From: Klebsormidium nitens
Taxonomy: Eukaryota > Plantae > Klebsormidiophyceae
Assembly (NCBI GenBank): GCA_000708835.1
Contig: DF237661.1
Coordinates: forward strand, 14,637-47,014
Direction of reading: 5' to 3'
Length of the DNA stretch: 32,378 nucleotides
A program made the position numbers and the translations under genes. The notes under the pieces were generated by a model, which searched no databases, was not told where the DNA came from, and worked only from the letters and a program-made list of their open reading frames with translations. Shown in pieces: positions 6,421-31,449 of this stretch (positions are counted from its first letter, which is position 1; each line of letters starts with the position of its first letter).

Positions 6421-6452
6421 TGCTCTCTAGTATCTCACTGAAAATACATACA

Positions 6453-6458
6453 CTTAGG
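6453..6458 (+). promoter_or_regulatory. CTTAGG candidate promoter motif
   Basis: 32 nt before ATG 6491; also centred between the divergent starts at 6420 and 6491. Confidence 0.55.
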
Positions 6459-6490
6459 GCTCTCTGGCAGCCTTCCAAGCTTTCATCATA

Positions 6491-6847
6491 ATGGACCGCA
6501 CCCGAGCTGCTGAGTGCCTCATGTCGATCGTCATGCTGTGTGCTGCACTGAACGCGCTTGGCGATGTTACTAAAGAGTCCAACGAGCGTATGCTAGCACT
6601 CTTGTCGGCGCAGGCCGGCACCCTGGTACTCCTGACCTTTGCCTTTGGTGCTGGCCACAACCGAGGCGGTGCAAGGAGCCCGTGGGCTTTTGTCGTCCTC
6701 CTCGCATCGATGGCGATCATGCAACTCCGTCTAGCGCTCACTACAGGGCATGCTGCATCCGTGCACTTTGCTTTCTACTACTCTTGGGCCTTTCTTGCAG
6801 CCAGGCTCTTGTTGATGACGATCGACGTGCATGTCCGCCAGGCTTAG
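6491..6847 (+). CDS. 118-aa multi-pass membrane protein
   Basis: About four hydrophobic segments; CTTAGG motif upstream. Confidence 0.7.
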   Translation: MDRTRAAECLMSIVMLCAALNALGDVTKESNERMLALLSAQAGTLVLLTFAFGAGHNRGGARSPWAFVVLLASMAIMQLRLALTTGHAASVHFAFYYSWAFLAARLLLMTIDVHVRQA

Positions 6848-6848
6848 G
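6843..6848 (+). promoter_or_regulatory. CTTAGG candidate promoter motif
   Basis: 43 nt before ATG 6892; overlaps the TAG stop of the previous gene. Confidence 0.45.
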
Positions 6849-6891
6849 GCCAACGCGTGCAGTGAGTTGACAACAATTCTCGGTCCCAAGT

Positions 6892-7908
6892 ATGGCTGCC
6901 GCCCACTCCACCGCCGAACCATGCATCCCAATGAAGCCCGTGGCTTCCCTCGACCGTCGCGAGACCCTGAAACTGCAAGCAATGGAGGGCGTTGTCCGAA
7001 AGTGTCACTGCTTTGATGGGGCCTTTGTCTTTGGTGGGTTCGTCAGGGACTACATCGTCAACCAAGTCCTCCCAAATGACGTTGACCTGAGCTTTAAGAA
7101 CGTCGGGGACATCACGACCTTTCTCCGAATCCTCAGCGAGCTTTACGAGATTGATCAGGTCGAGAAGCACGCCGGGTACGGATGGGGGATGCGGCGCTTC
7201 GAGACTTGGAAGGCCCGTGTGGGAGCTTATGGGGCAGACGGGGGCGTTGTTTACTTCACGGTTGACCTGGTGTCTGGCGCGAAGGAGGATATGGCGTCTA
7301 GCTTGTGCGACTTCACGTGCAACATGCTCTCCCTGTCCCGTACCGGCATCGAGCTCGTATCCGTCCCCCCCAGCCTGCACCTCCGCTCCTCCCCGATACA
7401 AGACGTGCTCTCTGGCATAAACGCCCGGGAATTCTCGGTGGTGGAAGGCAAGGTGACGCTGCTCCAGTCAGAGGTTGGGCCTTACGCTGCAAAAGTTTGC
7501 AGACGCGCCAGCGTGATGGTCCGCAGGGGCTGGCATATGACGAGAGGGAAGACTTTTCAAGCTTTCCTTGTCGAGGGTCCTGAGGCCCGCGCAGAGTGCT
7601 CGATCTGCACCTCTGAGTTTGAGAGTGGTGAGGTTGCAATCCAGACCATATGCCACCACCATTTCCATGCAACGTGCATCTCAAAGTGGTTGCTCGAGGG
7701 CCGCAGCACCGTCACCTGCCCGGTGTGCCGAGAGGAGCACTTTATGATGCCAGCCGCATCCATCGCTTTGACCAAGCCAGCCAAGCCCGCAGAGGCAGAC
7801 GAGGCTGACACGGACGAGGACGAGGACGACTCAGATTACGACCCCGAGGATGACGAGAACAACGTGTCTGTGCTGACCATCGAAGTTCCTAGACCCCGAC
7901 GTCGGTAG
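6892..7908 (+). CDS. Class II nucleotidyltransferase-like domain fused to a RING-H2 finger and acidic tail
   Basis: FVFGGFVRDY..PNDVDL and DFTCN (CCA/poly(A) polymerase head motifs); CSIC..CHHHFHATCISKW..CPVCR (RING-H2). Confidence 0.8.
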   Translation: MAAAHSTAEPCIPMKPVASLDRRETLKLQAMEGVVRKCHCFDGAFVFGGFVRDYIVNQVLPNDVDLSFKNVGDITTFLRILSELYEIDQVEKHAGYGWGMRRFETWKARVGAYGADGGVVYFTVDLVSGAKEDMASSLCDFTCNMLSLSRTGIELVSVPPSLHLRSSPIQDVLSGINAREFSVVEGKVTLLQSEVGPYAAKVCRRASVMVRRGWHMTRGKTFQAFLVEGPEARAECSICTSEFESGEVAIQTICHHHFHATCISKWLLEGRSTVTCPVCREEHFMMPAASIALTKPAKPAEADEADTDEDEDDSDYDPEDDENNVSVLTIEVPRPRRR

Positions 7909-7938
7909 TGATGCGTCCTTCTTGTACAGCACTTTTCT

Positions 7939-8346
7939 ATGCTTGTTGTAACTAACATGGATTATCGTACGATCCTAATTCAGCTTGCAGCTTTGGTCCT
8001 GCTTTACGTGCTCTTGCACAAGGACAACATGGACATCCTACACGCGTGCATGGCCAGGAAGGAGAATGATGCACATGACCATGCACACACAAGTAACGAT
8101 GATATGACAGAAGAAGACAGGGTGATAGCAGATGCCATATTTGGATCTATCGCGGCACCACTGTTCAGCGCAAAGGTCGGTGGCCAGCAATTTAAACCCC
8201 AAAAGTCTGCCCGTGTCGAAGAGGTTCCAGAGCAGCCAGCCGAGCAAAAGCCCTCAGTGGCAGACAGCCCAGTTGCATCCCAGACGAGCACTGTCCGACG
8301 CCGTACTCCCAAGAAGGCAGTCACCGCCGACGTCCCTGATACGTGA
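7939..8346 (+). CDS. Hypothetical protein with N-terminal hydrophobic anchor
   Basis: 135-aa ORF that fills the space between neighbouring genes. Confidence 0.65.
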   Translation: MLVVTNMDYRTILIQLAALVLLYVLLHKDNMDILHACMARKENDAHDHAHTSNDDMTEEDRVIADAIFGSIAAPLFSAKVGGQQFKPQKSARVEEVPEQPAEQKPSVADSPVASQTSTVRRRTPKKAVTADVPDT

Positions 8347-8380
8347 GCAAATAGCTCGCATCCTACTAAGTAAACTGGGG

Positions 8381-8842
8381 ATGAGCCTGATGCGTGACCT
8401 CAGATTGATCCACGAACGACAAAAGAAACGGCTCCGTATTCTCTACGACTCCATTCTAAGGGACTGCACTACAAAGATACGGCATGCTGCGGAGTTGAAA
8501 AAGCTGAAGATCCTGTACGAGCTCCCCCTGATCCAGGAGGGTCTGCCCCTCTATGATGTGGCATCCTGCAAGCGCTACCTGGTGAAGGCGCTGGCGGCCC
8601 AAGGGTTTGACTGCTCGGACGCTGGCGGGACGAGATTCATCACGATCAGCTGGAAGAATGCTATAACACAGAAGCAAAAGGTCAGCCACGTCGAGAGGGG
8701 CCAACAGGCCGCAGATCCAGGGAAAGCAAAGGTGCAGAAAGAGGAGGCCCCGCCTCTTCCCCCGATCCTCGGGAAGGACGACCTGTTCGCCCTGCCATCA
8801 ATCAAGGGCCTGCAGGCAACCGCAAAGATGCTACGAAAGTGA
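8381..8842 (+). CDS. Conserved NCLDV protein (DUF5759-like)
   Basis: LYDSILRDCTTKIR..YELPLIQEGLPLYD..C.RYL..L..QGF....FITISW pattern, recalled from memory. Start taken at MSLMRDL. Confidence 0.7.
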   Translation: MSLMRDLRLIHERQKKRLRILYDSILRDCTTKIRHAAELKKLKILYELPLIQEGLPLYDVASCKRYLVKALAAQGFDCSDAGGTRFITISWKNAITQKQKVSHVERGQQAADPGKAKVQKEEAPPLPPILGKDDLFALPSIKGLQATAKMLRK

Positions 8843-8894
8843 TCACGTGCGTCCGACCCATCCGCACCCCTTTCCGTGCTTATGCCAGAAGATC

Positions 8895-10076
8895 ATGGAG
8901 CAGGCACCGTCCTTACCACACCTTCACACAGGGTCAGTCCGGTTCATGAAGGGGCCCGACGGAAAGCATGCACACGTCCAGCGGATCGATGCAAAGGATC
9001 TCGACCTGAACCTCCTCGTCATGGCCCGGCAGGAGTACACGACCTTCCTTCACCACATCCTCAGGGACAAGGTCAAAGCGGGCCTGCTGACTCAGTACAA
9101 TACCGCTGTTGAAGAGTCACCTTCACCAATCCTGGTCATCAAGACATACCAGAAAATCCTCAAGGAGACCCCCCTTTGGAACCAGAACATTGTCCGACGA
9201 GAAACGGAGCGAGTTTTGGGCGAATACCGGCCCATGTTCCCGAACCTCATCGCGCTCATATATGTTGCAAAGGTCAAGATCATGGCGTCAGTACGAGTGA
9301 CAAAGGGAACCTCGTACGTTGCTCTCTCAATCCCCTCTCCAGAGGCCTTTGTGCACCAAGTATACATAGAGTGTGCACACATCCTGTACGAAAACCCAAC
9401 CCTCTGCCATCTCCCCTCAAATGACGTCCGTCTGCACTTTGAGCGCAACGACGTGCTGCAGGACGTGGTAAGGCGGGGCACTGAAGAAGCCCTCTCAATA
9501 ATGCTTCCCGTCAAAGACATCTTGAGCGAGTATCTAAACAACTCAATGCTTGAGAACTCTGTCTTCTCAATGGGCGATGAGGAAGAAGATACTCGTAGGG
9601 AAGACAGAACAAGCGAGAGTGAATCTTCCGAGTCAGACGATGACAAGGGAGATCGCAAGTACGTCCCGCCGGTTGGGGATGACTTCCTTAAGCAAGCACT
9701 CGTGCAACCCGAGCCCGGCGAAGCCCGTGAAGAGACCCGGGTTGTCCATACGAGAGATCCATTGACCCTGACCGGTGTGGCAAGAAGCAATGGGGGTGAG
9801 ACTGGCCACACACAAGAGAGCCAGCCCGTTCCAAGGCACGAGAGCGGTCCAACAGGCCCACCTCACGATAGGGGTCCGCTACACGAGAGCGGCCCTCCAC
9901 GCGAGAGCGGCCCTCCATGCGAGAGCGGCCCTCCACACGAGAGCGGCCCTCCACGCGAGAGCGGGAGCGGCCACCAACACCACCGGCAGCTGTCTGATGG
10001 TGAGCGTCTTGAGGCAGGGACACCCTTCTTCGAGGATGAGTCTGATGATGAGCAGACAGTGCACGACTACGCATGA
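8895..10076 (+). CDS. Conserved NCLDV protein (DUF5764-like) with acidic, repeat-containing C-terminus
   Basis: EYT..L..IL, KTYQKILKETPLWNQNIV.RET.R and IPSPEAFVHQVYIECA pattern, recalled from memory. Confidence 0.75.
   Translation: MEQAPSLPHLHTGSVRFMKGPDGKHAHVQRIDAKDLDLNLLVMARQEYTTFLHHILRDKVKAGLLTQYNTAVEESPSPILVIKTYQKILKETPLWNQNIVRRETERVLGEYRPMFPNLIALIYVAKVKIMASVRVTKGTSYVALSIPSPEAFVHQVYIECAHILYENPTLCHLPSNDVRLHFERNDVLQDVVRRGTEEALSIMLPVKDILSEYLNNSMLENSVFSMGDEEEDTRREDRTSESESSESDDDKGDRKYVPPVGDDFLKQALVQPEPGEAREETRVVHTRDPLTLTGVARSNGGETGHTQESQPVPRHESGPTGPPHDRGPLHESGPPRESGPPCESGPPHESGPPRESGSGHQHHRQLSDGERLEAGTPFFEDESDDEQTVHDYA
9885..9964 (+). repeat. 18-bp coding tandem repeat (xESGPP), 4 full copies plus a partial
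   Basis: gagagcggccctcca(c/t)(a/g)c units. Confidence 0.92.
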
Positions 10077-10126
10077 GCTTCGCGGCCGTACACACTTTTT
10101 TATGTTGGTCACTCATCAACGAAAGC

Positions 10127-10444
10127 ATGGTCCCCGACTTTCTCCAGAGCCCCATTGGCGCTGCACTCATTGGCGGGATCCTGTTGCTCGGGGGTCTGTA
10201 CTACATGTATGGAACCGAAGGCAGATACCAAAAAATGGACAAACAAGAGATCTGCAGGATCTTCTTCCTACCACCAGCAATCCTAGCGGCAAGCATCTAC
10301 TGGTTTGTGTCGTCAAGGGTGGCCCCTCCCTCAGCTGCAAGGGTGCCCCCTCCCCCCCCTGTCGAGATCCCTCAGGCCCCTGAGTTCGAGCAGGTGCCTG
10401 CGCCAAGTACGCCTATCTTGACGGAGCCTTTTGCAGATGAGTAG
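10127..10444 (+). CDS. Small two-TM protein with Pro-rich tail
   Basis: Starts MVPDFL; two hydrophobic helices; ends ILTEPFADE. Confidence 0.7.
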   Translation: MVPDFLQSPIGAALIGGILLLGGLYYMYGTEGRYQKMDKQEICRIFFLPPAILAASIYWFVSSRVAPPSAARVPPPPPVEIPQAPEFEQVPAPSTPILTEPFADE

Positions 10445-10486
10445 GCGCGTCAGGATGGGAGCAAATCTTGTCTGTGCTCCAATCAA

Positions 10487-10909
10487 ATGTCGACCCGCAA
10501 GGAGAAAAGCAGCCAACAGCACGAGGCACACTCGAAGCGGCCCCCAAAGCCCGTGGAAGATGTCATCAGCGATTCAGAAGAGGAGTTCGAACAGGGAGAC
10601 GATCCTCTCATTGGTGCACTATTTACAAGAGAGGGATTACCTGTCGCCGAAGCCATCGTGTACATCGCTACAGCCATCTCCAACCTATCCAGCAACCTCC
10701 AATCCTACTCCGAAAAGAGCCTGCGCCTCCAAAAGTTTGTCGCCAAGCAGCTCCAAGCAATCTCAGAGTCCATCGCACCCATCGACGACGAAGCACAGGG
10801 GGAGGAGGAGCGGCCCGATGATGAAGCCAACTCGACTGCAGCCCAGGTGCAAGGAGAGACAAAGCCCGATGTAGAGGAGCCTGCCGCGTCTTCTACCCCT
10901 GCTTCTTGA
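10487..10909 (+). CDS. Acidic hypothetical protein resembling a conserved phycodnavirus family
   Basis: Acidic ends flank a helical core (LFTREGLPVAEAIVYIATAISNL). Confidence 0.7.
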   Translation: MSTRKEKSSQQHEAHSKRPPKPVEDVISDSEEEFEQGDDPLIGALFTREGLPVAEAIVYIATAISNLSSNLQSYSEKSLRLQKFVAKQLQAISESIAPIDDEAQGEEERPDDEANSTAAQVQGETKPDVEEPAASSTPAS

Positions 10910-11417
10910 GCAGGTAACGCCTGAGGAGGAAGAACGTTGAAGCCACGAGAGAGCCTTGCATCAGTGCCCTCGGCCATGTGGTGGCCTCTGCAGGGGGCAC
11001 GAGCCACTGTGGAAGGAACTCCCTCAGACGCCCTTGAACGTACGGAGAGCCCACAGCAATCGAGAGGGCCATGACCAGAAGGGCAGTCCGCTGCTCGTCC
11101 GTCAGAACGGGCTCCTTGTTTGAATGAGCCTCCCATAGAGCCTGCTGCATAACAGGGTGTATGGGGAGATCTCTGTAAGTGCTCGGTATTTGCGCGGCTG
11201 GCACATGTGCCGCCCGAGGGTCCTCACTCCTGTACAGCTGGTCCAACTCGGTGCCCCCACCGATGGGGAACTCGACTTCATCCGGAGCGCACGCGGCGTT
11301 GTTCATCGGGACCGGACCTCCCTGAGGCGCCGCTTGTGGGGCACCTGGTGGTGCGGCAGGTGCGCCGTTCAAGTTCATACCCAGCTCCTGCTTGACAAGC
11401 GACTGATAGTCCGTCAT
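10893..11417 (-). CDS. Conserved phycodnavirus-type membrane protein
   Basis: LTDEQRTALLVMALSIAVGSPYVQGRL..LPQW and a C-terminal TM helix. Confidence 0.7.
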   Translation of the reverse strand: MTDYQSLVKQELGMNLNGAPAAPPGAPQAAPQGGPVPMNNAACAPDEVEFPIGGGTELDQLYRSEDPRAAHVPAAQIPSTYRDLPIHPVMQQALWEAHSNKEPVLTDEQRTALLVMALSIAVGSPYVQGRLREFLPQWLVPPAEATTWPRALMQGSLVASTFFLLRRYLLKKQG

Positions 11418-11486
11418 GTGGGGCCTTTCCTTTTGTGCAGGAAACTTACCACTGACTCACACGCACCACGTTTGCAAGCAGTCATG

Positions 11487-12059
11487 TCAAGTGAAGGGAG
11501 TCCCCTTTGACTTGCGAGCCCCCACCTCGCCGAAACAAAACTCTCCAAAAGCTCGTTGGTCGTTGCAGGCGGTGGTGACGGGAGTCCTATAAAACTGCCT
11601 CTGCGAGTTGGCGTTCTCGTAGATGTCCGTCTGGTCACGGTACAGCCCCTGATAGAACTGCGCGTCTATCTCATCCTTCACGTGCTCCGGATCGCAACCG
11701 GGTGGCCGGTCGGGTCTCTCCTCGTACTCGTTGATCAGGAAGTTTCCCATGGGGTTCTCCATGGTCGGACGCTGGCATACCGGGGCAATCGTCACGGAGG
11801 GCTCCCCCTCTTCTGAAAGGCCATGAGGCACCGTCTGTTGATGCCGCACGTACAGGTACACCCCTGCACATGCCACCAACCCAAGCAGGAATGGATCGAT
11901 CGCATATGCGAGCACGCACGTGATCACGTAGACCATGAACCTGGCCGACGAGTTGATCTGTGCGGCATAGCTGCCCCCCGAGAACGGGGCAATGTCGAAC
12001 GCTCTGCTGCCACGGAAGAGGACCCCCGGGTCCTGAAAGAAAACGGGTTCAGAAGCCAT
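11487..12059 (-). CDS. Conserved NCLDV membrane (probably structural) protein
   Basis: N-terminal FFQDP..LF, two TM segments, CQRPTMENPMGN and SQRQFYRTPVTT..NDQ.AF motifs. Start taken at MASEPV. Confidence 0.8.
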   Translation of the reverse strand: MASEPVFFQDPGVLFRGSRAFDIAPFSGGSYAAQINSSARFMVYVITCVLAYAIDPFLLGLVACAGVYLYVRHQQTVPHGLSEEGEPSVTIAPVCQRPTMENPMGNFLINEYEERPDRPPGCDPEHVKDEIDAQFYQGLYRDQTDIYENANSQRQFYRTPVTTACNDQRAFGEFCFGEVGARKSKGTPFT

Positions 12060-12102
12060 GCGCCTCCTTGTATTACTTGTGCTGCATTTTTTTAGCCCCA
12101 TA

Positions 12103-13275
12103 TCAACTTGCCAGCCGGGACGCTGTCAGCCTAGGCTTCCGTGGCCTTCTACGCTGCCCTCGAATCAGCCCAGGCACAGCGGTCATGTCGATGCTCCCGT
12201 CCCGGTTGATCATGGACGGCAACCGGCTCACAAGGTCAGGCGTAACACTGGTGCTCAAGAGACTCGAAAGCACATTGCCCCCACCTGCGCCGGTGCCCCC
12301 TACGACCCTCTGCATCACGCTTGGGTCCACGAGCTGAGCTGCATCTTGCACGAGAGCCTGCAGTGCTGGCACGTTGGCCGTCCTAGTGAGCATGGAGACC
12401 CCTCTCAGCATCCTCGGGTCCTCTTGTAGGGCATTTACGGACGCTATCAGCGCCGGTATGCTGCTAACGTCCAGGCTTTCAACCGCATCGGAGAGCAGAC
12501 GGACGAGCATCCCTGAATCGACGCACCGGAAGGCCCTCCTGAACACTCTGACCACCCCTTTCATCGATTCGGACCTCAGAAACCCACGAGCCGTCTCAAG
12601 GGCTTCTCGTTCGGTCGCCGACCGGAGGCTCCTGAGATGCGGCAGGAGGTCCTTGAGCAGACTCCCGTCGATCGATCTGTCCCTGTGTTCCGGATCATTT
12701 TCGGGGCGAAGCCCCGAAAAACGAGGTAGCACCGCGCTCAGGTCAACGCCATCGAGGAGGCCGTCGAGGTCGGCGCTGAGCTCGTCTTGCGTCTGGCCCT
12801 CCAGAAACTGCACAAGGAGAGCCAGGATGCCACTGACCTTCTCCCGCAAGCAGGCCGGCAGCAAGACGTGTTGCGAGATAATCTCGCTTACCAGCTCCGA
12901 CCAGCCGCTCTCATCTGCCACGCCTCCGGCCACCAGGACATCATCAGCCGAAGTGGACTCGACCAGGGCTTGAACAGCTGCCCACAGCCTCTCAACCTCT
13001 CCTGGAGACAGGAGTCTTCCCTGCAAAAAGAGACCGGGGACCGGTGATAACTGTGCATCATGCTCTGCAAAGAATGCCATGTCATGGTCGTTGATTGCGT
13101 CCATCACACCCTCTGCCAGCAGAGCTTCTCGGAAGCGGTTGAACATGAGGCCCGGTGACTTTCGCGATGCACTCTTGACCAGCATCCGGAGCTTCTTCAG
13201 CTGTGCGCAAGCCGGGTGCTGCCTGTAGAACCGCTCTACGAGCTGCCTCAGTTGCTGATCAAACTCCTTTGACAT
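12103..13275 (-). CDS. Hypothetical helical protein
   Basis: 390-aa ORF with coding-like composition that fits the gene tiling. Confidence 0.75.
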   Translation of the reverse strand: MSKEFDQQLRQLVERFYRQHPACAQLKKLRMLVKSASRKSPGLMFNRFREALLAEGVMDAINDHDMAFFAEHDAQLSPVPGLFLQGRLLSPGEVERLWAAVQALVESTSADDVLVAGGVADESGWSELVSEIISQHVLLPACLREKVSGILALLVQFLEGQTQDELSADLDGLLDGVDLSAVLPRFSGLRPENDPEHRDRSIDGSLLKDLLPHLRSLRSATEREALETARGFLRSESMKGVVRVFRRAFRCVDSGMLVRLLSDAVESLDVSSIPALIASVNALQEDPRMLRGVSMLTRTANVPALQALVQDAAQLVDPSVMQRVVGGTGAGGGNVLSSLLSTSVTPDLVSRLPSMINRDGSIDMTAVPGLIRGQRRRPRKPRLTASRLAS

Positions 13276-13322
13276 GAAGCCTAGGCTCTACGAAGAAAGA
13301 TTGGGGCACACCCGTAACGAGA

Positions 13323-14312
13323 CTAAAAGTAGCCCGCAAAGTTGGGGGACCCAAGAGACCGGGAAACACACCTGAAGTGCAGCTTGATGGTGTTGTCCAG
13401 GTTCTGAAAGTCTGCCGGTGACCCGTCCTGCCTCAACCACCGGAGGTGGAGGCTGTCGAGGCGCGCGATTGGGGGCCTGAACTCCTTGAAGATGAGATAA
13501 CCAGAGACGCCGCCGCTGTAAGTGACCAAGGACCCTGCATCGCCCACGAGTGCAATCCGCCCAAAGCAGTTTGGGGGAGCGGCCGAGACAAGGCCCTCAC
13601 CGCTCGGAGAGTAGGACACCTCATGCATGCTTGTGTCCAGCTCCGGGCTCGACAGCAGCACGTGGTGATCCCCGGTCGTATCTACGTACCCACTCGAGAC
13701 CAAGGCCCCCGAGTACACAGGGTCGTCCGAGACCATTGTGTCGTTGTAGGGCGTATCTTGTGCGTCGAACCCGAGCATGCTGCTGCACGTGCTCTCTCCA
13801 AACAGTATCCTGAAACGGGTCACGTCGTGGGAGGCTTTGAACGAAACCTTGTTCTGCCTGCTGAGGCTATCTACGACATAGGGACTGGCTGTGGAGGAGC
13901 TGTGAAGGTTCAGGAGGCGCGTAAGCTCCTCGCTCAGGTCCGTTATGTCATAGTGGCCCTCCCGAAGGCTGAAACGGATGACACGGGGGGCGCTGTTCCC
14001 AACAATCTCCTCGAGAGCAAACAGACTGTTTGTGCTGTCCACGTTGAAAGATACGTTTGGAACCTGGGCAAAAGCCAGGTCCACTCGAACGATGTTGGTC
14101 AGCGGATTCCGAAAGTAGATCCTGAAGTCATTGCTGCTTGAGAACCTGACGCGATCCCTCTGGGAAGAATCGACTTCGATCACGTGCGTCGAATACTCGA
14201 CCTGCGACTGCCGCGCGTGCTCGAGCTGCTGTTTCTCATACAGCTGGTCCGGCAGCGAACCAATCGGAAGCCCCCTGCTTCCCTCGAACCGGTGGAAAGG
14301 AGAGATCTCCAT
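13323..14312 (-). CDS. Conserved NCLDV beta-rich protein (DSxxRD family; possibly a minor capsid or penton-like protein)
   Basis: IEVDSSQRDRVRF...NIVRVDL.FAQVPN..FNVD..NSLF motif. The structural role is inference. Confidence 0.65.
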   Translation of the reverse strand: MEISPFHRFEGSRGLPIGSLPDQLYEKQQLEHARQSQVEYSTHVIEVDSSQRDRVRFSSSNDFRIYFRNPLTNIVRVDLAFAQVPNVSFNVDSTNSLFALEEIVGNSAPRVIRFSLREGHYDITDLSEELTRLLNLHSSSTASPYVVDSLSRQNKVSFKASHDVTRFRILFGESTCSSMLGFDAQDTPYNDTMVSDDPVYSGALVSSGYVDTTGDHHVLLSSPELDTSMHEVSYSPSGEGLVSAAPPNCFGRIALVGDAGSLVTYSGGVSGYLIFKEFRPPIARLDSLHLRWLRQDGSPADFQNLDNTIKLHFRCVSRSLGSPNFAGYF

Positions 14313-14534
14313 CCTATAAGATTACCTTTTTATGATGAACGAGAGCCGCACAATGGTTTCCTTGACTGGGGGTCTGCCATCAGCTGCCACTCGTTCCAAA
14401 GACGCCCTCTGTCCACGCGGTGTATGTATGCAAGCCTGCAATGCAACTTCCTGGGGAAACTTTAGATAGTGCGCTCAGGGCAAAGGAGCCCGAAGAGCTG
14501 CACATGAAAACGTTTTCTAGACGAATCCAATAGG

Positions 14535-15800
14535 ATGGACGGCCCGTTGATGCGGGGGACGACCCTCAATATTGAGTACCTCCTGCCTTGCTCTGGCTTT
14601 GAGTACAGCTTCAATATTTATCCTTGGAATAATAATCTCAGCAGCGGCAACTGTTACAGCTACACTTTGGGAAACGCCCACGTTCAGGGGCAAAAGGCCC
14701 AGCCAGGGGACATTGCAATGCTTTTTCGGGACCTTGTAGAAAAGTACAATCTAGGCGAGCCGGGCGTGGATCTGACATGCGGCTGCGCTGACGTGGTTAA
14801 CTCTGTGCTAGCGGACGGGGTCGCATGCGCACGCCTGCAGGACCTCGCGCTCGATGGGACCTACAACAAGCAGCGCACTACCATCAAGCCCATCGGGCTG
14901 ACCGCCAGGCCGGAGACCGGCTGGTACAAGATAGTGTGCGTGATGGGAACCGAGGCAAACGGCGACGCAGACTTCCACTTTGTCAGGCAGGACATCATGG
15001 ACATGTACGATCTGTACTCCATCACTTTGCATGGCTATCATGACTTTAACAGGCCCCAATCTTGCTTCTGGTTCGGCACGCCGCTCTGGCAGGGGGGCAA
15101 GGGCGGCTTCTTCACAACCACCCCCAGCCCCTATGACGTGCTCGGCATCCACCCGTTCACCGGGAGCCGTTACGTTGAGTCGATCTTCACAGACACGTCC
15201 CGTGACCCAAGCGCGTACGGCCTGAAAGGCAATCTAAGGGCTGCCCACTCCTACATCTCCGGAGCGAAACCGATCGATCAGAACGACCCGAATCTCAATC
15301 GGCCGCGCACGAATATCGACCTGCACGTTTCGAGGATCCCCGAGTATATTCTAAGCGGCAAGAACTTCATCCCCTCGCCTTTCTGGCTCGTTTCTGTGGA
15401 CCCGTTCGTCGAGGACTGTGCAAACAAGGTGCGCAGGCGCCAGCAGGAACTGTCGCGGATCTACGAGGGCCGCCCGGGCTACGAGCTGCACAAGAAGACG
15501 GTCGATGACGCGGCCAAGGACTGCATCGATATCTGCAACAAGCGCCGAGGCATGCCGCCCGTCCACAGCCTGATTGGCACCTTCAGCGAGAAGCTGGGGT
15601 TTGGCACGGGCGCCCTGAACACCGATGGCGCATTCAAGCTCAACTTTGACCCCTCCAAGGCCTGCCGTTACAGGGGAGGCGTTCATTACCAGAGCGTCTG
15701 CACAGCTTTCAGCGTCTTGCACAATCATGGCGTAACGGCCATCTCGGCGTTCGATCGGCCGAGCGGCCGCAAGACAAAGAATGCTACAAGACAGGTGTGA
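14535..15800 (+). CDS. Conserved phycodnavirus-type protein, possible Cys-His hydrolase
   Basis: GNCYSY, QPGD, YKIV, DFHFVRQD and FSEKLG motifs. Confidence 0.7.
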   Translation: MDGPLMRGTTLNIEYLLPCSGFEYSFNIYPWNNNLSSGNCYSYTLGNAHVQGQKAQPGDIAMLFRDLVEKYNLGEPGVDLTCGCADVVNSVLADGVACARLQDLALDGTYNKQRTTIKPIGLTARPETGWYKIVCVMGTEANGDADFHFVRQDIMDMYDLYSITLHGYHDFNRPQSCFWFGTPLWQGGKGGFFTTTPSPYDVLGIHPFTGSRYVESIFTDTSRDPSAYGLKGNLRAAHSYISGAKPIDQNDPNLNRPRTNIDLHVSRIPEYILSGKNFIPSPFWLVSVDPFVEDCANKVRRRQQELSRIYEGRPGYELHKKTVDDAAKDCIDICNKRRGMPPVHSLIGTFSEKLGFGTGALNTDGAFKLNFDPSKACRYRGGVHYQSVCTAFSVLHNHGVTAISAFDRPSGRKTKNATRQV

Positions 15801-20822: not shown

Positions 20823-20856
20823 TGATACTATTGATGTTCTAAGCACAAAGTTTGTC

Positions 20857-23335: not shown

Positions 23336-25515
23336 ATGGACACCGTCAAGAGATGGGCGTACAAGAAGGGGTTCATGCTGAAAAAGGGCTCAACTGGAGA
23401 GACGCACCTTCTGTTCAACAAGGGTCGCCTGCAGATCCTCAGGGACGCAGAAGCAGCCTTCCTGGAGACCTATGCCAAGTGGATTGAGGATGGGCGGGAC
23501 CTGTTTGTGATTGAGCAGAGGACCTCCCCAACCTTTCGCATGTTTGTGGACTTGGACTATGAGACAAAGAAAGAGGTGTCAAAAGATGAGCTGAAGACCG
23601 TCTGCCAGTGTATCCAGCGCACGGTGCTTGAGCAGGTTGGAGAACATGCTGCCAGGTGTGTAGTGAGCTGCGCAGACAAACCAAAGGCCACAAAGGACGG
23701 GCTTCTCAAGACCGGAGTGCATCTGGTGTGGCCAGACATCCAAGTTGACTCTGAAAACGCCCTCCGGCTGCGCACCTGGGTCCTGGCAGGCCTGCATGAG
23801 ACCTTTGGTCAGAATGACTGGCCCAAGATGGTGGACATCTCTGTCTACACCAGGGCCGGCCTGCGCCTCAATGGCTCAATCAAGCGGGCTGAGTGCACAT
23901 GCAGAGGGCGGGATGATGCTTGCAACAGGTGCCAGGGGAAAGGAGAGGTCTTTGACAGGAGAAAGTATGCCCCGCTGGTGTGCTATGCCGGACCAAGCGA
24001 GAGCCCTGAGCTGCTGGAGCTGTGCATGTCATCCATCAGCGCCCGGGTACGACCCTTACTGCACCTGGGTTAACAAAAGATCAGCGGGGAGCCGTTTCTC
24101 GGTCAAGCTTTCCCATCTCTTCTTCCTATTGTTCACCTCCAAGCCTTCTTTCTCGCTACAATGTCACTCCAGTCAGGGTAGCCTTCTTCAACTGTGATCA
24201 AAAGATGGGGAAGGGTCTCATCAGAGGGGTAAAGCTTGATATCCACGCGCCTCTCTACAAACCTGTAGAATACTCGCGCCTCGTCATATGTGCCCTTGAC
24301 TCTTCTCTGCAGAGTCGGGAAGTGCTGTAGAAAGTCTTGCACCTCCAACGCAATCCAGTGTCTGCTGATCCGCTCGCCTGACTTTGCTGTGTACTGAAAC
24401 CCACTGTTGACCAATTTGAGCCACAGCCAGGTTGCATCATAATCCTCTATCCTCATTACAGTGGCCCTGTAAGGGCTGGACAGGTGCTCATACCTAAAGT
24501 ATCTCTTGGAGCTGACTTTCAGCATGTCTTTCAGGGTGAAATTTTCCCCTTGCCATGTATTAGTGTTCAGGAAGGCCCCTATCACCCCATCCAGGATTTT
24601 GAAAAGCTCAAGTCGAGCGAGCCTGTCCTCAACCCCGTGCTTTATGTTGTCTGTTAGCGCATCACGAGTACAGCTGTCCATCTTTGGCTGGCTTCTTGCA
24701 AGGGAAATAGAAAAAGCTGAACCAATCGACAGAGTGGAAGATATGTCGTTCGTAGCTTGTTGAGCTGGACAATTGCTTCGAGCTTTCAATAATCCAAGCA
24801 AGAGCTGCGGTCCTGAACACACACTTCTTCTGCAGGTGAGGTTGACGTCCATTAGGGTCCCCTTTGGCGAGGAGCGCGAATCAACCCACATACCACAATG
24901 CGAAAGCATGCTCGAGCTTGAGCCTGAGCTTCAGGAGAGGTGTCACCAGGGGAAGGGGTCCCGCCTGGAGGCCGACAACACTCTGATGGGGCTGCTGACA
25001 AGGGAGCTCGGAGAAGCCTTCCCAAGCTGCTTCAAGGATGGCGAGGAGCTCTCTGACATTGTTCAGATGTCCGGCGACGATGGCAACCCCTACTTCCTGG
25101 TTCACACCAATTCCTGCTTCTGCCACAACCTGGGGCGATGCCACAACTCCAACCGCGTGTACTTTTACATTGACTCACAAAGGCTCCTCCAAAAGTGCTT
25201 CTGCACGTGCAACACGACCGAGGGCAGGAAGATGGGCTTGTGCTCTCAGTACAGCAGCGCACCTCATCCGGTCAGCACGGAGCTGAGGCGAGCCCTGTAT
25301 CCCGGCATTGACGACCTACTCATCGACCTGGACAGATTGACACGGAGCTGCAGCCTCGCGTGCAGCACATCTTGCAGAACACAAGCACCCTGGAGTCGCT
25401 GGACCAGCTCAAGGCCAGTGACCCATTGGAGTCACTCGCAACCGAGGCTCTGCTGGCGAGCGTGGGCTGGCAGAGGTGTGCAAATTCGTTTTGGTTGGTT
25501 ATTGCAAGGGCATGA
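23336..25515 (+). CDS. Archaeo-eukaryotic primase (PBCV-1 A468R-like) with C-terminal Zn-binding domain; one intron and an apparent frameshift
   Basis: FRMFVDLDY, KTGVHLVWP, D.SVY..GLRLNGS and FCHNLGRCHNSNRVYF..QKCFC. Exons 23336-24046 and 24836 onward; frame change near 25335. Confidence 0.85.
24047..24835 (+). other. Primase intron (789 nt, phase 0) with nested antisense gene
   Basis: cgg|GTACGA ... cttcttctGCAG|gtg; joins SSISAR|VRLTSIR. Confidence 0.8.
24133..24681 (-). CDS. 182-aa unknown protein nested antisense in the primase intron
   Basis: MDSCTRDAL...ARKKAWR; globular-looking composition; lies wholly inside the intron. Confidence 0.75.
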   Translation of the reverse strand: MDSCTRDALTDNIKHGVEDRLARLELFKILDGVIGAFLNTNTWQGENFTLKDMLKVSSKRYFRYEHLSSPYRATVMRIEDYDATWLWLKLVNSGFQYTAKSGERISRHWIALEVQDFLQHFPTLQRRVKGTYDEARVFYRFVERRVDIKLYPSDETLPHLLITVEEGYPDWSDIVARKKAWR

Positions 25516-26019
25516 ATGCAGAATCACTACCTCCTCTCCTTCATCCTGCATGTTGCACTCGTGCTCGGCTTCCTTGTGGCCTTCCGGAAGCTGGCCCCTC
25601 ACATCAACAACTCCTTGCAGGCCCGCACCGAAGGCACCAGCCGCGAGGCCATCAAAGCGACGCAGGCGCGCCCACCGTTAGCCCAGCGAGCATGCCATCC
25701 GGTTGCATTTGACAAGGCGGCCGATGCCATCCGAAAGTTTGAGCTGTGCGAGAGCAGCTTCTTGGAGGACAAAAGGCACAGGTCAAGGACATATCTGAAT
25801 GCTGTAGAACAGTCGAGCCGTTGCATGAAGCATCTGTACCGATTGAAACGAGCCATGCCAAACGATATGGCTGCAGAGAACAGGCTGGATTACTTTGTGG
25901 ACTACATTGAATCTACCATGACAGACAGCCTCCGTGCAATGGCGAGGCAGTCAAAGAGAGGAAAGGCACTCCATCACATGCCTCCCACCTTCCCACTTGC
26001 ATCAAATGTTCGCCAATGA
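25516..26019 (+). CDS. Hypothetical protein with N-terminal TM anchor
   Basis: 167 aa; its ATG directly follows the frame-corrected primase stop. Confidence 0.75.
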   Translation: MQNHYLLSFILHVALVLGFLVAFRKLAPHINNSLQARTEGTSREAIKATQARPPLAQRACHPVAFDKAADAIRKFELCESSFLEDKRHRSRTYLNAVEQSSRCMKHLYRLKRAMPNDMAAENRLDYFVDYIESTMTDSLRAMARQSKRGKALHHMPPTFPLASNVRQ

Positions 26020-26032
26020 TAAACCTTCTGCC

Positions 26033-26251
26033 ATGGGAAACACAAAGTCTCGCACAGTCACTACCGTACGCCTTGACAACATTGAAAGGGGCTCATCCCA
26101 GAGGAAGCGCACTCGCGAAGAGCTCGAGTTTCTGAGGTTGAAGGTCATGCATGCTGAGAGCGAGGCAGAGCGGCTTGCACTTGAACGGGAGATTGAAAAG
26201 GTTAAGCGCGAACAGGCAACAAGCACAAAGGCGCAATCGATGATGCAATGA
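26033..26251 (+). CDS. 72-aa coiled-coil protein with possible N-myristoylation signal
   Basis: MGNTKS fits MGxxxS; E/R/L-rich helical core. Confidence 0.55.
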   Translation: MGNTKSRTVTTVRLDNIERGSSQRKRTREELEFLRLKVMHAESEAERLALEREIEKVKREQATSTKAQSMMQ

Positions 26252-26306
26252 AGATGGGTATAGCCTTGGGCATTGCAATCCTGATGCTCATCCTGGTGTC
26301 GTCGCT
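26248..26306 (+). CDS. 5' fragment of a small hydrophobic protein, cut by a gap
   Basis: ATGA overlap with the previous stop; MKMGIALGIAILMLILVSS before the Ns. Confidence 0.35.
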
Positions 26307-26369
26307 NNNNNNNNNNNNNNNNNNNNCATAAACTCCCTCTGTCTCTTTGTGGTATGGTCCGGAACATCG

Positions 26370-27275
26370 TTACACTCTCGGGAATATATCCTCGAGCCTG
26401 ACATCTTCTTCCAGGTTTTTGATTGTTGCTCTCAATGTCATGATGCTGTTTGGCTGAGCCTTGTCCCGCCTTGCCTTGCGCGGCTGCCAGGTGTTGCTCC
26501 TCGGATCCCAAGCACACTCGTAGATCGGACGCTTCCCCTGCTGTATGTCCATGTCCACGATCATTTTGATGATGCTTCCCTCGGCGAGACACGTCTCCGC
26601 CACCGCAACTTCACGGCCCCTGTCCACGAGAGACAGTGTATAGTGGCTGCCATTATGATCGATCAGAAAGTCGACCGTGTTTGCTTCCAAAACCTTCCAT
26701 TTAAACAGCGTGGGGCAGGTGCCGTAACGGATCGGCTCGTCCACTGGCGTGAAGACAAGACCATCCGAATGATACGGCAGTGCAGGGGCCACTGTCTGGG
26801 AGTACGCGTACCCCTCTTGAAACGGAACCAGCCCCTTCCGCTGCACAGGCACCTTCCGGTGGTTTGGGAGCACCAGCGTCCAGCCCTGCTGCGCCTTGTC
26901 GAAGAAATCTTGCGTCAGTGCCTCCAAGCGCCCCCGCAGGGTGAGAGACGCTACCTGCCCCCGGCTGGTTCTCAAGGCGTCGTAAACTACAAAGAGCCTG
27001 CTGGTAGGGTCCCTCTTCATGCTGACCAGCTCTCCATCCAGCAGGAGGTCACCTTCGAGCTTGCCCCCTGCCAGGCTGACACCTATAGTTGCCATGTTCC
27101 TCCCAACAAGTGCTGCAGAGCCGCCGACGACTGCTAGAAGGTACCGAACGCCGTCAGTCTTCTCGGCTACCATGTACGGGACCCTCTGCAGCCGCTGCAG
27201 ATCCTTGCGCTCGACCGCCGATGGGAAGCTGAAGCAGTTGGAAGAGAAGCCCAGGGCCTCAAGGATGGACGCCAT
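26370..27275 (-). CDS. mRNA capping enzyme, stand-alone guanylyltransferase (chlorovirus type)
   Basis: Motif I AEKTDG, III LLDGELV, IIIa FVVYDAL, IV DGLVFTP, V LFKWK..NTVDF, and a C-terminal OB fold (WQPRKARRDKAQPN). Confidence 0.95.
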   Translation of the reverse strand: MASILEALGFSSNCFSFPSAVERKDLQRLQRVPYMVAEKTDGVRYLLAVVGGSAALVGRNMATIGVSLAGGKLEGDLLLDGELVSMKRDPTSRLFVVYDALRTSRGQVASLTLRGRLEALTQDFFDKAQQGWTLVLPNHRKVPVQRKGLVPFQEGYAYSQTVAPALPYHSDGLVFTPVDEPIRYGTCPTLFKWKVLEANTVDFLIDHNGSHYTLSLVDRGREVAVAETCLAEGSIIKMIVDMDIQQGKRPIYECAWDPRSNTWQPRKARRDKAQPNSIMTLRATIKNLEEDVRLEDIFPRV

Positions 27276-27309
27276 CGCTGAAAATGCTCAGATCGCTCGT
27301 CCGGTTGTC

Positions 27310-27315
27310 CCTAAG
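27310..27315 (-). promoter_or_regulatory. CTTAGG candidate promoter motif
   Basis: 34 nt before ATG 27275; overlaps the RFC stop. Confidence 0.55.
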
Positions 27316-29184
27316 TGTCGCTGGCCCGTCTCAGAAGGCCCTTGTCTCGGGCCCTCAACTGGCCAAAGCCGACGGTTCTCAGTATGCCTTCCGCGGTCAC
27401 AATGCTCAATCCTGAATGTCGCAAGAAGGTTGCAAGGCCGGCCTCTTCCTGCCGGTCTAAGAACCTTCTCAAGCAGTGCTCCAGGAACGCCAGCCGTTCC
27501 AAGCTGGCATCGCCGTGTCCTTCCAGCAGCAGCTGCGGCCTCAGGGAGGACTCTTGCTTCTGTTTCACGCTTATGAATGCTGCTTTATTTCGTGTAGACC
27601 CGCGGCCCAGACTGCGCGTGCCCGTGTCTTCGGACCGCTTACCAAGCCTCCTTGGCAAGGGCCTCTGGCTGATCACGGGCCTCGACAACGCCGAGGCGCA
27701 GCCTATGAGCCCCACGTAAGGCAGCAGGTCCCAATCCTGCCTCTGGAAAAGCCGTGCTTCGACCATGTCCGCAGCAGACAGAAGCTGTGCACCGTCAGGA
27801 GCTAGCTCCGGGGTGTCCAGGTAGTTTTCAAAGTAGGCAGATGTCGTTCCAAGGACGTCCTCGGAGGTCGCCTTAAAGAGCACGCCCGTGGAAACCGGCT
27901 TGTCAGGGTAGAGCAGGTGGCAGGCGCTCTCCAGCATAGACTCTGCCTTGTCCGTAGAGCCCTTCAGCCCGCTCTGCAGGACGTTCAGCATGGACCTGGC
28001 GTCTCCCTCCGCCGCACGGCAGGCCTCATCCACCTCTCTGTCCGATGCTACCAGGCCCTCCTGCGAGAGCACGTGCCTGGCCAGGAGCACTAGCTTGTCG
28101 TGGGGCAGCCTGCCAAAGCAGATCACCTCGCTGTCCCCTTCCAGATCGGCCATACGGCCCTTTGGCGTGTCGTTGGTTGTCNNNNNNNNNNNNNNNNNNN
28201 NNNNNNNNNNNNNNNNNNNNNNNNNNNNNNNNNNNNNNNNNNNNNNNNNNNNNNNNNNNNNNNNNNNNNNNNNNNNNNNNNNNNNNNNNNNNNNNNNNNN
28301 NNNNNNNNNNNNNNNNNNNNNNNNNNNNNNNNNNNNNNNNNNNNNNNNNNNNNNNNNNNNNNNNNNNNNNNNNNNNNNNNNNNNNNNNNNNNNNNNNNNN
28401 NNNNNNNNNNNNNNNNNNNNNNNNNNNNNNNNNNNNNNNNNNNNNNNNNNNNNNNNNNNNNNNNNNNNNNNNNNNNNNNNNNNNNNNNNNNNNNNNNNNN
28501 NNNNNNNNNNNNNNNNNNNNNNNNNNNNNNNNNNNNNNNNNNNNNNNNNNNNNNNNNNNNNNNNNNNNNNNNNNNNNNNNNNNNNNNNNNNNNNNNNNNN
28601 NNNNNNNNNNNNNNNNNNNNNNNNNNNNNNNNNNNNNNNNNNNNNNNNNNNNNNNNNNNNNNNNNNNNNNNNNNNNNNNNNNNNNNNNNNNNNNNNNNNN
28701 NNNNNNNNNNNNNNNNNNNNNNNNNNNNNNNNNNNNNNNNNNNNNNNNNNNNNNNNNNNNNNNNNNNNNNNNNNNNNNNNNNNNNNNNNNNNNNNNNNNN
28801 NNNNNNNNNNNNNNNNNNNNNNNNNNNNNNNNNNNNNNNNNNNNNNNNNNNNNNNNNNNNNNNNNNNNNNNNNNNNNNNNNNNNNNNNNNNNNNNNNNNN
28901 NNNNNNNNNNNNNNNNNNNNNNNNNNNNNNNNNNNNNNNNNNNNNNNNNNNNNNNNNNNNNNNNNNNNNNNNNNNGCGTTCTGCTCGACGACCTGACAAT
29001 CTGCTTCTCTAAGAGCCTGGTACGCTGCACACGTCTTCCCGGTCCCAGCAGGGCCTATGAGTAGGGCGGCCCGCTTCGTGCCGGGCTTGCGGTCCAGAAA
29101 ATCTCGCAGCCATTGCCTCAGGCGCTCGCGAGCCCCTTCGTTGCCGACAAGAAAGCTGCTGTACTTGGTTGACCACAAGGCCAT
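27311..29184 (-). CDS. Replication factor C large subunit; spans a gap
   Basis: LWSTKY, Walker A GPAGTGKT, VVEQN and AAEGDARSMLN. Confidence 0.88.
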
Positions 29185-29213
29185 GGAGCTGTTGTTGAAA
29201 AACGATGCAAGGG

Positions 29214-29219
29214 CCTAAG
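29214..29219 (-). promoter_or_regulatory. CTTAGG candidate promoter motif (second copy at 29242-29247)
   Basis: 29 nt before ATG 29184. Confidence 0.55.
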
Positions 29220-29263
29220 TCCATGCGTTCCTCAAAGATCTCCTAAGCTATGGGTAGACAGGC

Positions 29264-29497
29264 ATGCTGCAGTCGTTCATAAGGGAGCTCCTGGACATAT
29301 TCGCAAAGGAGCTGGCAGTTGAGGAGAACAAGCGAAAGCTCAGGGCCACCTTGGCGGCTCCACTCGTGCAGGAGATTGTTCCTTACATACACATCAGTCT
29401 CTCGATCCTGCTTGTAGTTGGCATCCTCACGTTCCTCAACCTTGGACTCACCACGTACATGATCAGACACTTTGAGAGCTTGCCTAAGACTGCGTAG
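29264..29497 (+). CDS. Small conserved NCLDV-type C-terminally anchored membrane protein
   Basis: 77 aa: a helical N-terminus, then LAAPLVQEIVPYIHISLSILLVVGIL. Confidence 0.75.
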   Translation: MLQSFIRELLDIFAKELAVEENKRKLRATLAAPLVQEIVPYIHISLSILLVVGILTFLNLGLTTYMIRHFESLPKTA

Positions 29498-29502
29498 CAA
29501 GG

Positions 29503-30598
29503 CTATGAAGCCCCTGCAATCAATCTCCTGGGGCGAACGACAATCATGCACGACTCCTGCTCCTTGACAACAGTCTTGCAGGGCTCCGGTGCTTGCTTCC
29601 TGGGGCGGACAACAATCATGCACGGCTCCCTGCTCCCGAACAACGGGCTCAGGTGCTTGCTTCCCGGGGCGGGGGACGATCATGCACTGCTCGGACGTCT
29701 CCACGGTGGGCTTCCTAGGATGGACCACGATCATGCAGGGCTCCCTTGGCTGTTCCAAAGTGCCTGCAATGCGCTTCTTGGGTGGCACGACAATCATGCA
29801 AGGCTCCTCCGCTTGCTCACGTGCCGCTGCGGTCCGCTGCCTGGGGTGGACGGTGATCATGCACGCCTCCGGTTCCGGCTTTGCTGCTGGCTCGTCGTCA
29901 AGCACTGCAACACGCAGGGTTGCAGCTCGTGGCACCCGGGGGCGCTTCCTCGACTCGATGCGGGCGAGCACCTCAGCGACCCCGTGCTCGCGGCAGTGGA
30001 GAACCTCCTTCCAGAAGGCGTCAAACTGCGGCAGGGCCTTTGCGAACCACTCGCGGTCTCGGGGGACCTCGATGCAGCTGAAAACCTCGTCGTCGATCAG
30101 CGATTCCGGCTTGAACTGCACGAACCAGCAGCTGTCGACATCGCAGATCTCAAGGCATAACTGAATTTGTGGGTAATAGTATGAAGGAACCTCGTCCTTG
30201 ATCTCCCTGCGAAGCGGGCACTTGATCTCCAGGAGCGCGCACCGCGACCCGTCTTCGGTAGAGAGCAGCCCGTCGGGCGAGCCCCCAAGGAATGGTATCG
30301 TCGGGTGCAGCAGGAGGCCGGCGTCGTACGCCTTGAAGCCGTGCCGCTCACAAAAGAGGTCTGATGCGAATGTCTCCCACTTTTGGCCATGGCGTGTGGC
30401 CTCATTCCCCATGAACTTTGGTCCATATCCACACTTTTTGAGAATGAGTTGATCCTTTGTCTCATACGGATTCAGCCCGAGTGCAGTTGCGGCATCGGAA
30501 GCCGTGAGCCTTTGGTGGCGTGCTGCGTACCATTCTTCGGACCGTTGCGCGGGCTGAGGGAGCGACAGCAGATGAGCGATCTTGGGATGGATTGCCAT
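29503..30598 (-). CDS. YqaJ/lambda-exonuclease-type viral recombinase with repeated C-terminal tail; apparent +1 frameshift at ~29629
   Basis: RLTASD, GGSPDGL, LLEIKCP and YYPQIQ motifs. The repeat continues in another frame to a TAG at 29503-29505. Confidence 0.88.
29525..29880 (-). repeat. Dispersed coding repeat EPCMIVVxPRK, 6 copies plus 1 degenerate
   Basis: tgcatgat(c/t)gt cores recur about every 50-70 nt. Confidence 0.88.
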
Positions 30599-30632
30599 GG
30601 CAAAATTGACTTGTTGTGCTAGTTATCTTGGC

Positions 30633-30638
30633 CCTAAG
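30633..30638 (-). promoter_or_regulatory. CTTAGG candidate promoter motif
   Basis: 34 nt before ATG 30598; overlaps the stop of the PARG-like gene. Confidence 0.55.
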
Positions 30639-31449
30639 TGCTTGCTGAAAAGGTGTCTCTGAAGATCAGGTAATTGTTACCGTCAAACTCTGTTACGGAG
30701 AGGATTGCAAAGACAATCGCCTTGAAAACTCCCTTGTGTTCCGAGAGAACTTTTCGAAACACTGCAGCAACGTCAGCGGGTGGGTTGTGCCAGGCACCGC
30801 ACCCCAGTGCACCCAGGACCAGGGAGTCGTGCCCCTTGTCTGCTCCCACCTGGAGTATTAGACGTACCTTATTCTCAAGGATCCTTCTGTCGGCCTCGGA
30901 CAGATGACCGCTGTCTCTACCGTCTCCTGACGCAAACTCGAGTTGCGGGTACTTGAGGCCGGGGCAAGCAATGAAGTCCAGCTTGAACGGTCGCGCGAGA
31001 AATTTGTACTCCGCTTCTTCACTTGCCCGGAACACGGTGACGTCCGGAGAGTAGATTGCCTCGTTTGCAGCTATTGGGTAAAGACGTTCTCGCGTTGGAT
31101 CGTTGTGCAGGCTCATGCAATAGTTTGTCCTCCGAAACAGCGACTCTTCCTGAGCGGACGCCCCTATGTCAACACAGCCTCCTGCAAAACAGTCATCTGC
31201 GAGGTTCAGGACCATAGGTCTGAAGCCTTCCTGCTGCAACTGGCGCGCAGCCATTATAGTGTCCTCTTTTTTCACTCGGATCTCTGTGTCTTTGTACCTC
31301 TGCGGCAGTGCCTGGTCCGGGCGTAGGATGTGCTTTTCGCATTTTGGCGGACGTGCCAGCCTTCCTGAGATGCCTTTGGTCTCTTCCCAAACCTTGATAC
31401 GCACGTCTTTGATGTGAGGTTTCTGGTCTCTCTTCTGCTCCATGAACAT
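30634..31449 (-). CDS. Microbial-type poly(ADP-ribose) glycohydrolase macrodomain (TIGR02452/DUF2263 family)
   Basis: VLNLAD..FAGG..IGASAQEESLFRRT and LVLGALGCGAWHNPP..VA.VF. Confidence 0.88.
   Translation of the reverse strand: MFMEQKRDQKPHIKDVRIKVWEETKGISGRLARPPKCEKHILRPDQALPQRYKDTEIRVKKEDTIMAARQLQQEGFRPMVLNLADDCFAGGCVDIGASAQEESLFRRTNYCMSLHNDPTRERLYPIAANEAIYSPDVTVFRASEEAEYKFLARPFKLDFIACPGLKYPQLEFASGDGRDSGHLSEADRRILENKVRLILQVGADKGHDSLVLGALGCGAWHNPPADVAAVFRKVLSEHKGVFKAIVFAILSVTEFDGNNYLIFRDTFSAST

Follow-up and report, generated by a model that had tools for sequence, protein, structure and literature searches.

A strand- and distance-specific ACTTAGG motif, a candidate viral promoter element, in a giant-virus gene block from Klebsormidium nitens

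Known promoter motifs of giant viruses and the Klebsormidium motif

A 32,378-nt stretch of DNA from the alga Klebsormidium nitens (contig DF237661.1, positions 14,637 to 47,014; hereafter the window) holds a block of giant-virus genes in which a short word, ACTTAGG, ends 29–34 nt upstream of a gene start, on the coding strand, in all six of its copies. An earlier note on this DNA had proposed CTTAGG, preceded by A or G, as a candidate viral promoter, and the proposal is supported by strand- and distance-specific enrichment together with indirect signs of conservation in relatives. In position and strand ACTTAGG probably resembles the promoter motifs of nucleocytoplasmic large DNA viruses (NCLDVs), its function being predicted.

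The putative promoter motifs of chloroviruses are AATGACA, ARNTTAANA and GTNGATAYR (PMC5294985, PMC3946568, PMC7019647). The likeness to ACTTAGG lies in the phycodnavirus-type setting, in a reliance on the host polymerase that we would also expect here and in a short word that keeps a preferred distance to the ATG; ARNTTAANA, at −15 to −45, occupies the same zone as ACTTAGG, and AATGACA lies at −60 to −90. ACTTAGG is nevertheless a different sequence with much tighter spacing (a 6-nt span), and the regions that carry it are not AT-rich, with a G+C content of 0.40–0.58 in the last 50 nt as compared with >70% A+T in PBCV-1.

The early motif of Mimiviridae is AAAATTGA and the late motif of CroV/ChlorV is TCTA, also given as AAAAATTGA and TCTA (PMC13196603). 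In these viruses too, a subset of genes is preceded, at a conserved position, by a short word that hardly varies, although the sequences are unrelated to ACTTAGG. Mimiviridae and CroV/ChlorV-type viruses encode their own RNA polymerase. The earlier statement that the Klebsormidium motif differs from the mimivirus and chlorovirus words is borne out: its consensus is different, and AATGACA, ARNTTAANA and AAAATTGA are absent among the top upstream k-mers of the window.

Other promoter-like motifs have been described in medusavirus (palindromic, immediate-early, at −40 to −70; PMC8557863), TetV-1 (ATCCGGA; PMC12126595) and punuivirus (AAANAACATAAG; bioRxiv 2026.10.09.758095). Like ACTTAGG they are lineage-specific and partly GC-containing, and they belong to nucleus-using or algal giant viruses, one of them endogenous. 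Their sequences are different and their temporal classes come from RNA-seq, whereas ACTTAGG is known from sequence alone; unlike the medusavirus palindrome, it is non-palindromic and strand-specific. No matching motif occurs in the available parts of PMC8400408, PMC11244446 and PMC11502894, and no report of an ACTTAGG motif was found in searches of the open-access literature.

Position, strand and spacing of ACTTAGG

CTTAGG as such is not over-abundant in the window, with 12 copies against 9.33 ± 3.0 expected, a total reached in 27 of 100 shuffles. Its position is far from chance. Nine of the 12 copies end at most 60 nt upstream of one of 31 curated gene starts, and the word ranks first among all 6-mers by this measure (Bonferroni 1.9e-8). 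Because the curated starts had been listed by an analyst already aware of the finding, the test was repeated with mechanical starts (the first ATG of open reading frames (ORFs) of at least 100 aa; n=68). Six of 12 CTTAGG and 5 of 6 ACTTAGG copies were then found 25–45 nt upstream of a start, an interval picked after the distances were known (expected 0.28 and 0.14); both words again ranked first (Bonferroni 5e-4 and 6.5e-4). One 7-mer is common to 6 of 30 upstream regions within a 6-nt span, while the best of 1000 shuffles reached 3. The test of positional enrichment that the earlier note had called for, run here on this window, shows a motif enriched at a fixed distance upstream of starts on the coding strand. 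A chance pattern selected after the fact would suit the chance-level total and the mere six core sites; nevertheless, the enrichment survives correction for all k-mers with two definitions of a start, as well as the 1000 shuffles, and the motif predicts residues in relatives (see below). We find it scarcely credible that chance produced the pattern; the motif is real.

Its core is ACTTAGG, with the consensus (C)ACTTAGG(G), and four of the six copies extend to CACTTAGGG; the G-preceded copies of CTTAGG are secondary ones. Seven of the 31 window genes carry the motif, and a position weight matrix scan of the window gave no additional sites upstream of other genes. The coordinates of the 12 CTTAGG copies and the seven distances reported previously were recomputed and are right, and the second copies reported before the HNH and RFC genes are present. 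Read directly from the window, the sites and the genes that they precede are as follows.

6452 to 6458, + strand: ACTTAGG(G), ending 32 nt before the ATG at 6491, at the centre of a 70-nt divergent intergenic region
6491 to 6847, + strand: motif-bearing hydrophobic ORF of 118 aa, no Pfam match
6842 to 6848, + strand: GCTTAGG(G), a weaker copy, 43 nt before the ATG at 6892; its TAG is the stop of 6491–6847
6892 to 7908, + strand: RING-finger protein, 338 aa (Pfam zf-RING_2, E 2.8e-12)
18348 to 18992, − strand: DUF7197 conserved NCLDV protein (PF23827, E 4.6e-27); the start at 18992 is conserved in homologue N-termini
19026 to 19032, − strand: ACTTAGG, ending 33 nt before the ATG at 18992; no stop codon; a contig of run X7 carries it unaltered
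19497 to 20822, − strand: HNH endonuclease, 441 aa (PF13392, PF05551)
20857 to 20863, − strand: ACTTAGG(G), ending 34 nt before the ATG at 20822; no stop codon
20873 to 20879, − strand: GCTTAGG, second copy, 50 nt before the ATG at 20822
26370 to 27275, − strand: stand-alone mRNA guanylyltransferase, 301 aa (PF01331/PF03919); start confirmed by homologues
27310 to 27316, − strand: ACTTAGG(G), ending 34 nt before the ATG at 27275; overlaps the last codon and TAG stop of the RFC gene
27311 to 29184, − strand: replication factor C (RFC) large-subunit-like gene (AAA_16; NF003229 below cut-off; homologues)
29214 to 29220, − strand: ACTTAGG, ending 29 nt before the ATG at 29184
29242 to 29248, − strand: GCTTAGG, second copy, 57 nt before the ATG at 29184
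29243 to 30598, − strand: YqaJ/lambda-exonuclease gene (PF09588; TIGR03033)
30633 to 30639, − strand: ACTTAGG(G), ending 34 nt before the ATG at 30598; overlaps the last codon and TAG stop of the PARG gene (30634–31449)
5511 to 5516, − strand: exception, CTTAGG, the TAG stop of ORF 6420–5512, without a gene start 25–45 nt downstream
6166 to 6171, + strand: exception, CTTAGG, antisense in a Pro/Lys/Ala repeat ORF
29483 to 29488, − strand: exception, T-CTTAGG, antisense to the end of ORF 29264–29497

Homologue N-termini confirm the gene starts at 18992 and 27275, and that at 29184 to within two codons. The RFC-like gene is interrupted by a run of N at 28182–28975. The earlier note held that the motif picks out the start of a VLTF2 gene at 18992; the start is confirmed by the homologues, whereas the name VLTF2 is not, since Pfam gives DUF7197 alone and NCBIfam and PDB sequences gave no match. 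A phage collection gave no match to the DUF7197 protein either. The region upstream of the HNH gene (20822–20879) contains three copies of CTTAG, at 50, 34 and 16 nt; this gene, which is probably mobile, also has weak helix-turn-helix-like matches.

Two generalizations about the copies need narrowing. CTTAGG was said to be always preceded by A or G, and a purine does stand there in 11 of 12 copies, but at 29483 it is T. Of the exceptions described as lacking a downstream ATG, two are followed by one, at 15 nt (5511) and 22 nt (29483), although neither ATG is a gene start.

The motif was also said to double often as the TAG stop of the upstream gene. This occurs at 27311 and 30634, but only two of the six ACTTAGG sites are stops, and the ‘stop’ at 29243 belongs to a YqaJ frame that reads through a repeat tail, probably frameshifted, over a + strand ORF. 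This tail (29243–29720) is a tandem peptide repeat that overlaps the 77-aa ORF at 29264–29497 (+), and the true end of the YqaJ gene is likely near 29500. Were the motif to serve the upstream gene, as a termination or polyadenylation signal or as a preferred stop context, its spacing from the next ATG would simply reflect tight packing. CT-TAG-G is indeed the context of 5 of the 12 listed TAG stops, as compared with 2 of 353 in AT-richer distant loci, and the copy at 5511 is a stop without a downstream gene. However, four of the six core sites are not stops (p ~1e-8 for these alone), two lie between divergent genes (6453 and 19026; a third is in the divergent gap 29184/29264), and relatives of the RFC gene read through the motif site as L-R codons. 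The non-stop sites already largely refute a role as terminator or stop context, which we consider very improbable; the overlap with stop codons is best explained by upstream genes packed tightly against a promoter.

Traces of the motif in relatives

One copy is seen intact in the DNA of a relative. A contig of run X7, with another organism label and from another study, aligns at 18985–19042; neither of its two differences falls in the motif, and its sequence departs from that of the window 10 nt 5′ of the motif. The PARG–YqaJ junction is spanned by a contig in X7/X8; the differences listed for it include an insertion of 6 nt immediately 5′ of the motif and, on the 3′ side, a −1/+1 pair. A DNA search for mid-distance relatives found none; searches of viral and metagenome contigs with the capping-enzyme locus gave no match, and those with the DUF7197 locus returned only relatives at 29–41%. 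In the 207 distant loci obtained with DUF7197 (2.8 Mb), 8 of 307 CTTAGG copies lie 25–45 nt before an ORF, against 3.6 expected, and never more than one per locus; the motif is not common to distant NCLDVs.

An indirect test at the protein level is also available: translated in a frame that crosses it, the motif can give only T-stop or A-stop, x-L-R, or [HYND]-L-G. The DUF7197 homologue P0032 (55–60% identity) has an upstream in-frame extension with H-L-G-T at codons −14 to −11, the same residues as two window sites give in that frame, which would place the end of the motif exactly 34 nt before the conserved Met. The RFC-end site of the window reads TLRD in the read-through frame, and three of five clusters of RFC homologues (48–54% identity) have TLRE, TLRE and ALRS in place of the window's T-stop; the other two end in Ala, compatible with GCT-TAG-G. 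Among the nearest PARG clusters, P0165 ends in T and P0163 in A. At window composition, the chance of any compatible register is 2.2%, that of HLGT 1.5e-5 and that of TLR[DE] 4e-5 per position, values that are not independent because the homologue clusters are related. The PARG homologue P0313 is extended upstream and has no motif residues there, and the window PARG gene is likewise without the motif. From these residues and the intact copy, relatives may keep the motif.

Predicted action on transcription and the block that carries the motif

We think it likely that ACTTAGG is a lineage-specific viral promoter element, setting the transcription start ~10–30 nt downstream and leaving a very short 5′ untranslated region. 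The RFC site at 29214–29220 has an out-of-frame ATG immediately on its 5′ side, 40 nt before the start at 29184, and most homologues make no use of the two in-frame ATGs that follow the DUF7197 site at 3 and 9 nt. Because the first of these abuts its site, and because the other two are not the conserved start, the motif would act as DNA upstream of the transcription start; transcripts would likely begin 10–30 nt downstream of it, with very short leaders. A sequence-specific factor would bind the motif, most likely one that is virus-encoded or virion-delivered because the word is lineage-specific, like other NCLDV motifs. This factor would recruit host RNA polymerase II (Pol II) in the nucleus, as in chloroviruses, a step suggested by the stand-alone guanylyltransferase, the GT-AG intron of PolB and the precedent of PBCV-1 (PMC3946568). 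With genes packed so compactly, upstream reading frames could end in the motif or run across it.

Action at the level of RNA, either as a translation element in the 5′ leader or as a 3′ splice or trans-splice acceptor (YAG/G) that leaves a leader of ~30 nt, seems to us unlikely. CTTAG/G does fit the acceptor consensus, the element has GT-AG introns, and strand specificity would suit an RNA element as well. However, no pyrimidine tract precedes the sites, whose flanks are A/C-rich, and a splice acceptor requires no fixed distance to the ATG. Were the DUF7197 site an acceptor, the ATGs 3 and 9 nt past it would be the starts, whereas homologues start 33 nt down; the ATG abutting the RFC site likewise speaks against a reading in RNA.

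A special case of the promoter explanation is that the motif is bound by a host telomere-repeat-binding Myb protein (TRB or TRFL), which would activate or, after integration, silence the viral genes. The earlier note had called the TTAGGG core telomere-like; four of the six core sites, and the copy at 6843, have it, but the canonical AAACCCT(A) is present in none of the seven sites. The K. nitens telomere is TTTTAGGG (PMC3622300), and the species has one TRB; the source for this also gives a minimal site of one telo-box (bioRxiv 2022.11.23.517682). AtTRB3 binds single CRACCTA oligonucleotides containing CCTAAG, and RMCCTA, which fits three of the seven sites, is enriched in TRB1 peaks; single boxes, however, are not bound in vitro by TRB1 (PMC13132431). 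With the plant telo-box (AAACCCTA, TRB-bound) the motif shares a TTAGG(G) core and a promoter-proximal single copy. It differs in that its invariant bases are a non-telomeric AC in place of the telomeric T run, in a variable third G (2/6) and in its fixed strand and strict spacing of ±3 nt. Neither AAACCCT nor CRACCTA occurs in any of the seven sites, and in the window TTTAGGG occurs once and TTTTAGGG not at all. A fixed strand and a spacing of ±3 nt suit a core-promoter element better than a telo-box. We therefore regard binding by a telomere-repeat-binding protein as doubtful, and it would be a long shot that a giant virus of a streptophyte alga had built its promoters from a telomere-like word, with Pol II put in place on viral genes by the host's single TRB. 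A motif read by a host telomere-binding factor would be a real surprise, and the same word could then route an integrated copy into Polycomb-type silencing.

Several points weigh against ACTTAGG as a promoter element acting through host Pol II. There are only six core sites, all in 32 kb, and genes for a viral RNA polymerase could sit outside a window of this size. The 6453 site lies equally far from the two divergent starts, as the reverse complement of 6452–6458 also ends 32 nt before the ATG at 6420 (−). The starts of the primase (23336) and PARG genes are without the motif. The motif-bearing genes had been described as mostly of early function; in PBCV-1 the capping enzyme A103R is indeed Early, but the exonuclease A166R is Early-Late and the RFC protein A417L Late (PMC3946568), so that the temporal class of the counterparts is mixed and an early role only partly supported. 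As for conservation, the X7 contig is a single record, of depth 2.4, from a close (~90%) relative, and a paralogous X1 contig that spans the site of the 18992 gene has 25 differences, of which 9 unlisted ones are near its ends. The other DUF7197 cluster with a long extension (P0031/P0159), which has Val at the Met position, is without compatible residues (one of two clusters matches), and the PARG homologue P0164 has an unrelated tail (two of the three nearest are compatible). Distant conservation is all read from protein rather than DNA, P0149 is related to P0150, and the read-through residues may stem from constraint on the tail at the protein level.

The genes with the motif would form a class of mRNA-processing and replication-accessory functions, and not structural ones; no copy occurs in the structural-type block at 7939–18306 (DUF5759, DUF5764, P9_TM, DUF5901 and Ulp1). 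The 0–30 nt upstream of the 24 starts without the motif are enriched in TTAT (7 of its 62 copies, Bonferroni 1.2e-3), and in the divergent pair 14312/14535 each gene is preceded by ATAGG-ATG; this pattern is possibly a second (late) promoter class.

ACTTAGG opens a first way into gene regulation in an uncultivated lineage of giant viruses linked with Klebsormidium, an alga closely related to land plants, and adds a tightly spaced candidate that is not AT-rich to the short list of NCLDV promoters. It is also a practical marker, which fixes start codons, would define a set of co-regulated genes and can help to recognize contigs of the lineage. It corrects one K. nitens gene model: GAQ91010.1 (P0001, 515 aa; window 26370–28153), which is 98% identical to the window capping enzyme, joins the C-terminus of RFC to that enzyme. 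As judged from homologues, the fusion is wrong and RFC and capping enzyme are two separate genes with the motif in between.

The window has ~56% GC and five N runs. Its genes include the following.

Intron-split family B polymerase (PolB), RING protein, DUF5759, DUF5764, P9_TM, DUF5901, Ulp1 protease and DUF7197
HNH endonuclease, AEP primase, mRNA guanylyltransferase, RFC-like AAA protein, YqaJ exonuclease and PARG

Pfam matches for PolB, AEP primase, capping enzyme, RFC, YqaJ, DUF5759/5764/5901, P9_TM and DUF7197 place the block in Nucleocytoviricota, and homologues of window genes were found on giant-virus contigs. Related metagenomic contigs stand behind P0004/P0155 (78 kb), P0161 (93 kb) and P0031 (36 kb). 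The window appears to be a phycodnavirus-like insert in the genome of the alga. Several such inserts have been described in the K. flaccidum assembly and argued to be endogenous, with five copies of a DNA polymerase gene and six of a capsid gene reported (PMC5294986). K. nitens has two further DUF7197 paralogues. We take the strain of the K. flaccidum assembly to be the one now named K. nitens.

The last apparent PolB intron, at 4471–5269 (+), is of the GT...AG type and 799 nt long. It holds an entire 240-aa ORF at 4499–5221 (−), which is Lys/Arg-rich, has an internal repeat and has no Pfam match. A hydrophobic 85-aa ORF at 1362–1625 (+) seems likewise to be nested in a PolB intron; a few bases on, PolB resumes at an acceptor-like TTGCAG. 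Finally, in run X6 the differences from the window over 18300–32378 are nearly all C>T (397 places) and G>A (485 places), a pattern as in a bisulfite-type library; the coverage of this run extends over all of 18300–32378, and methylation of the insert could be read from it.

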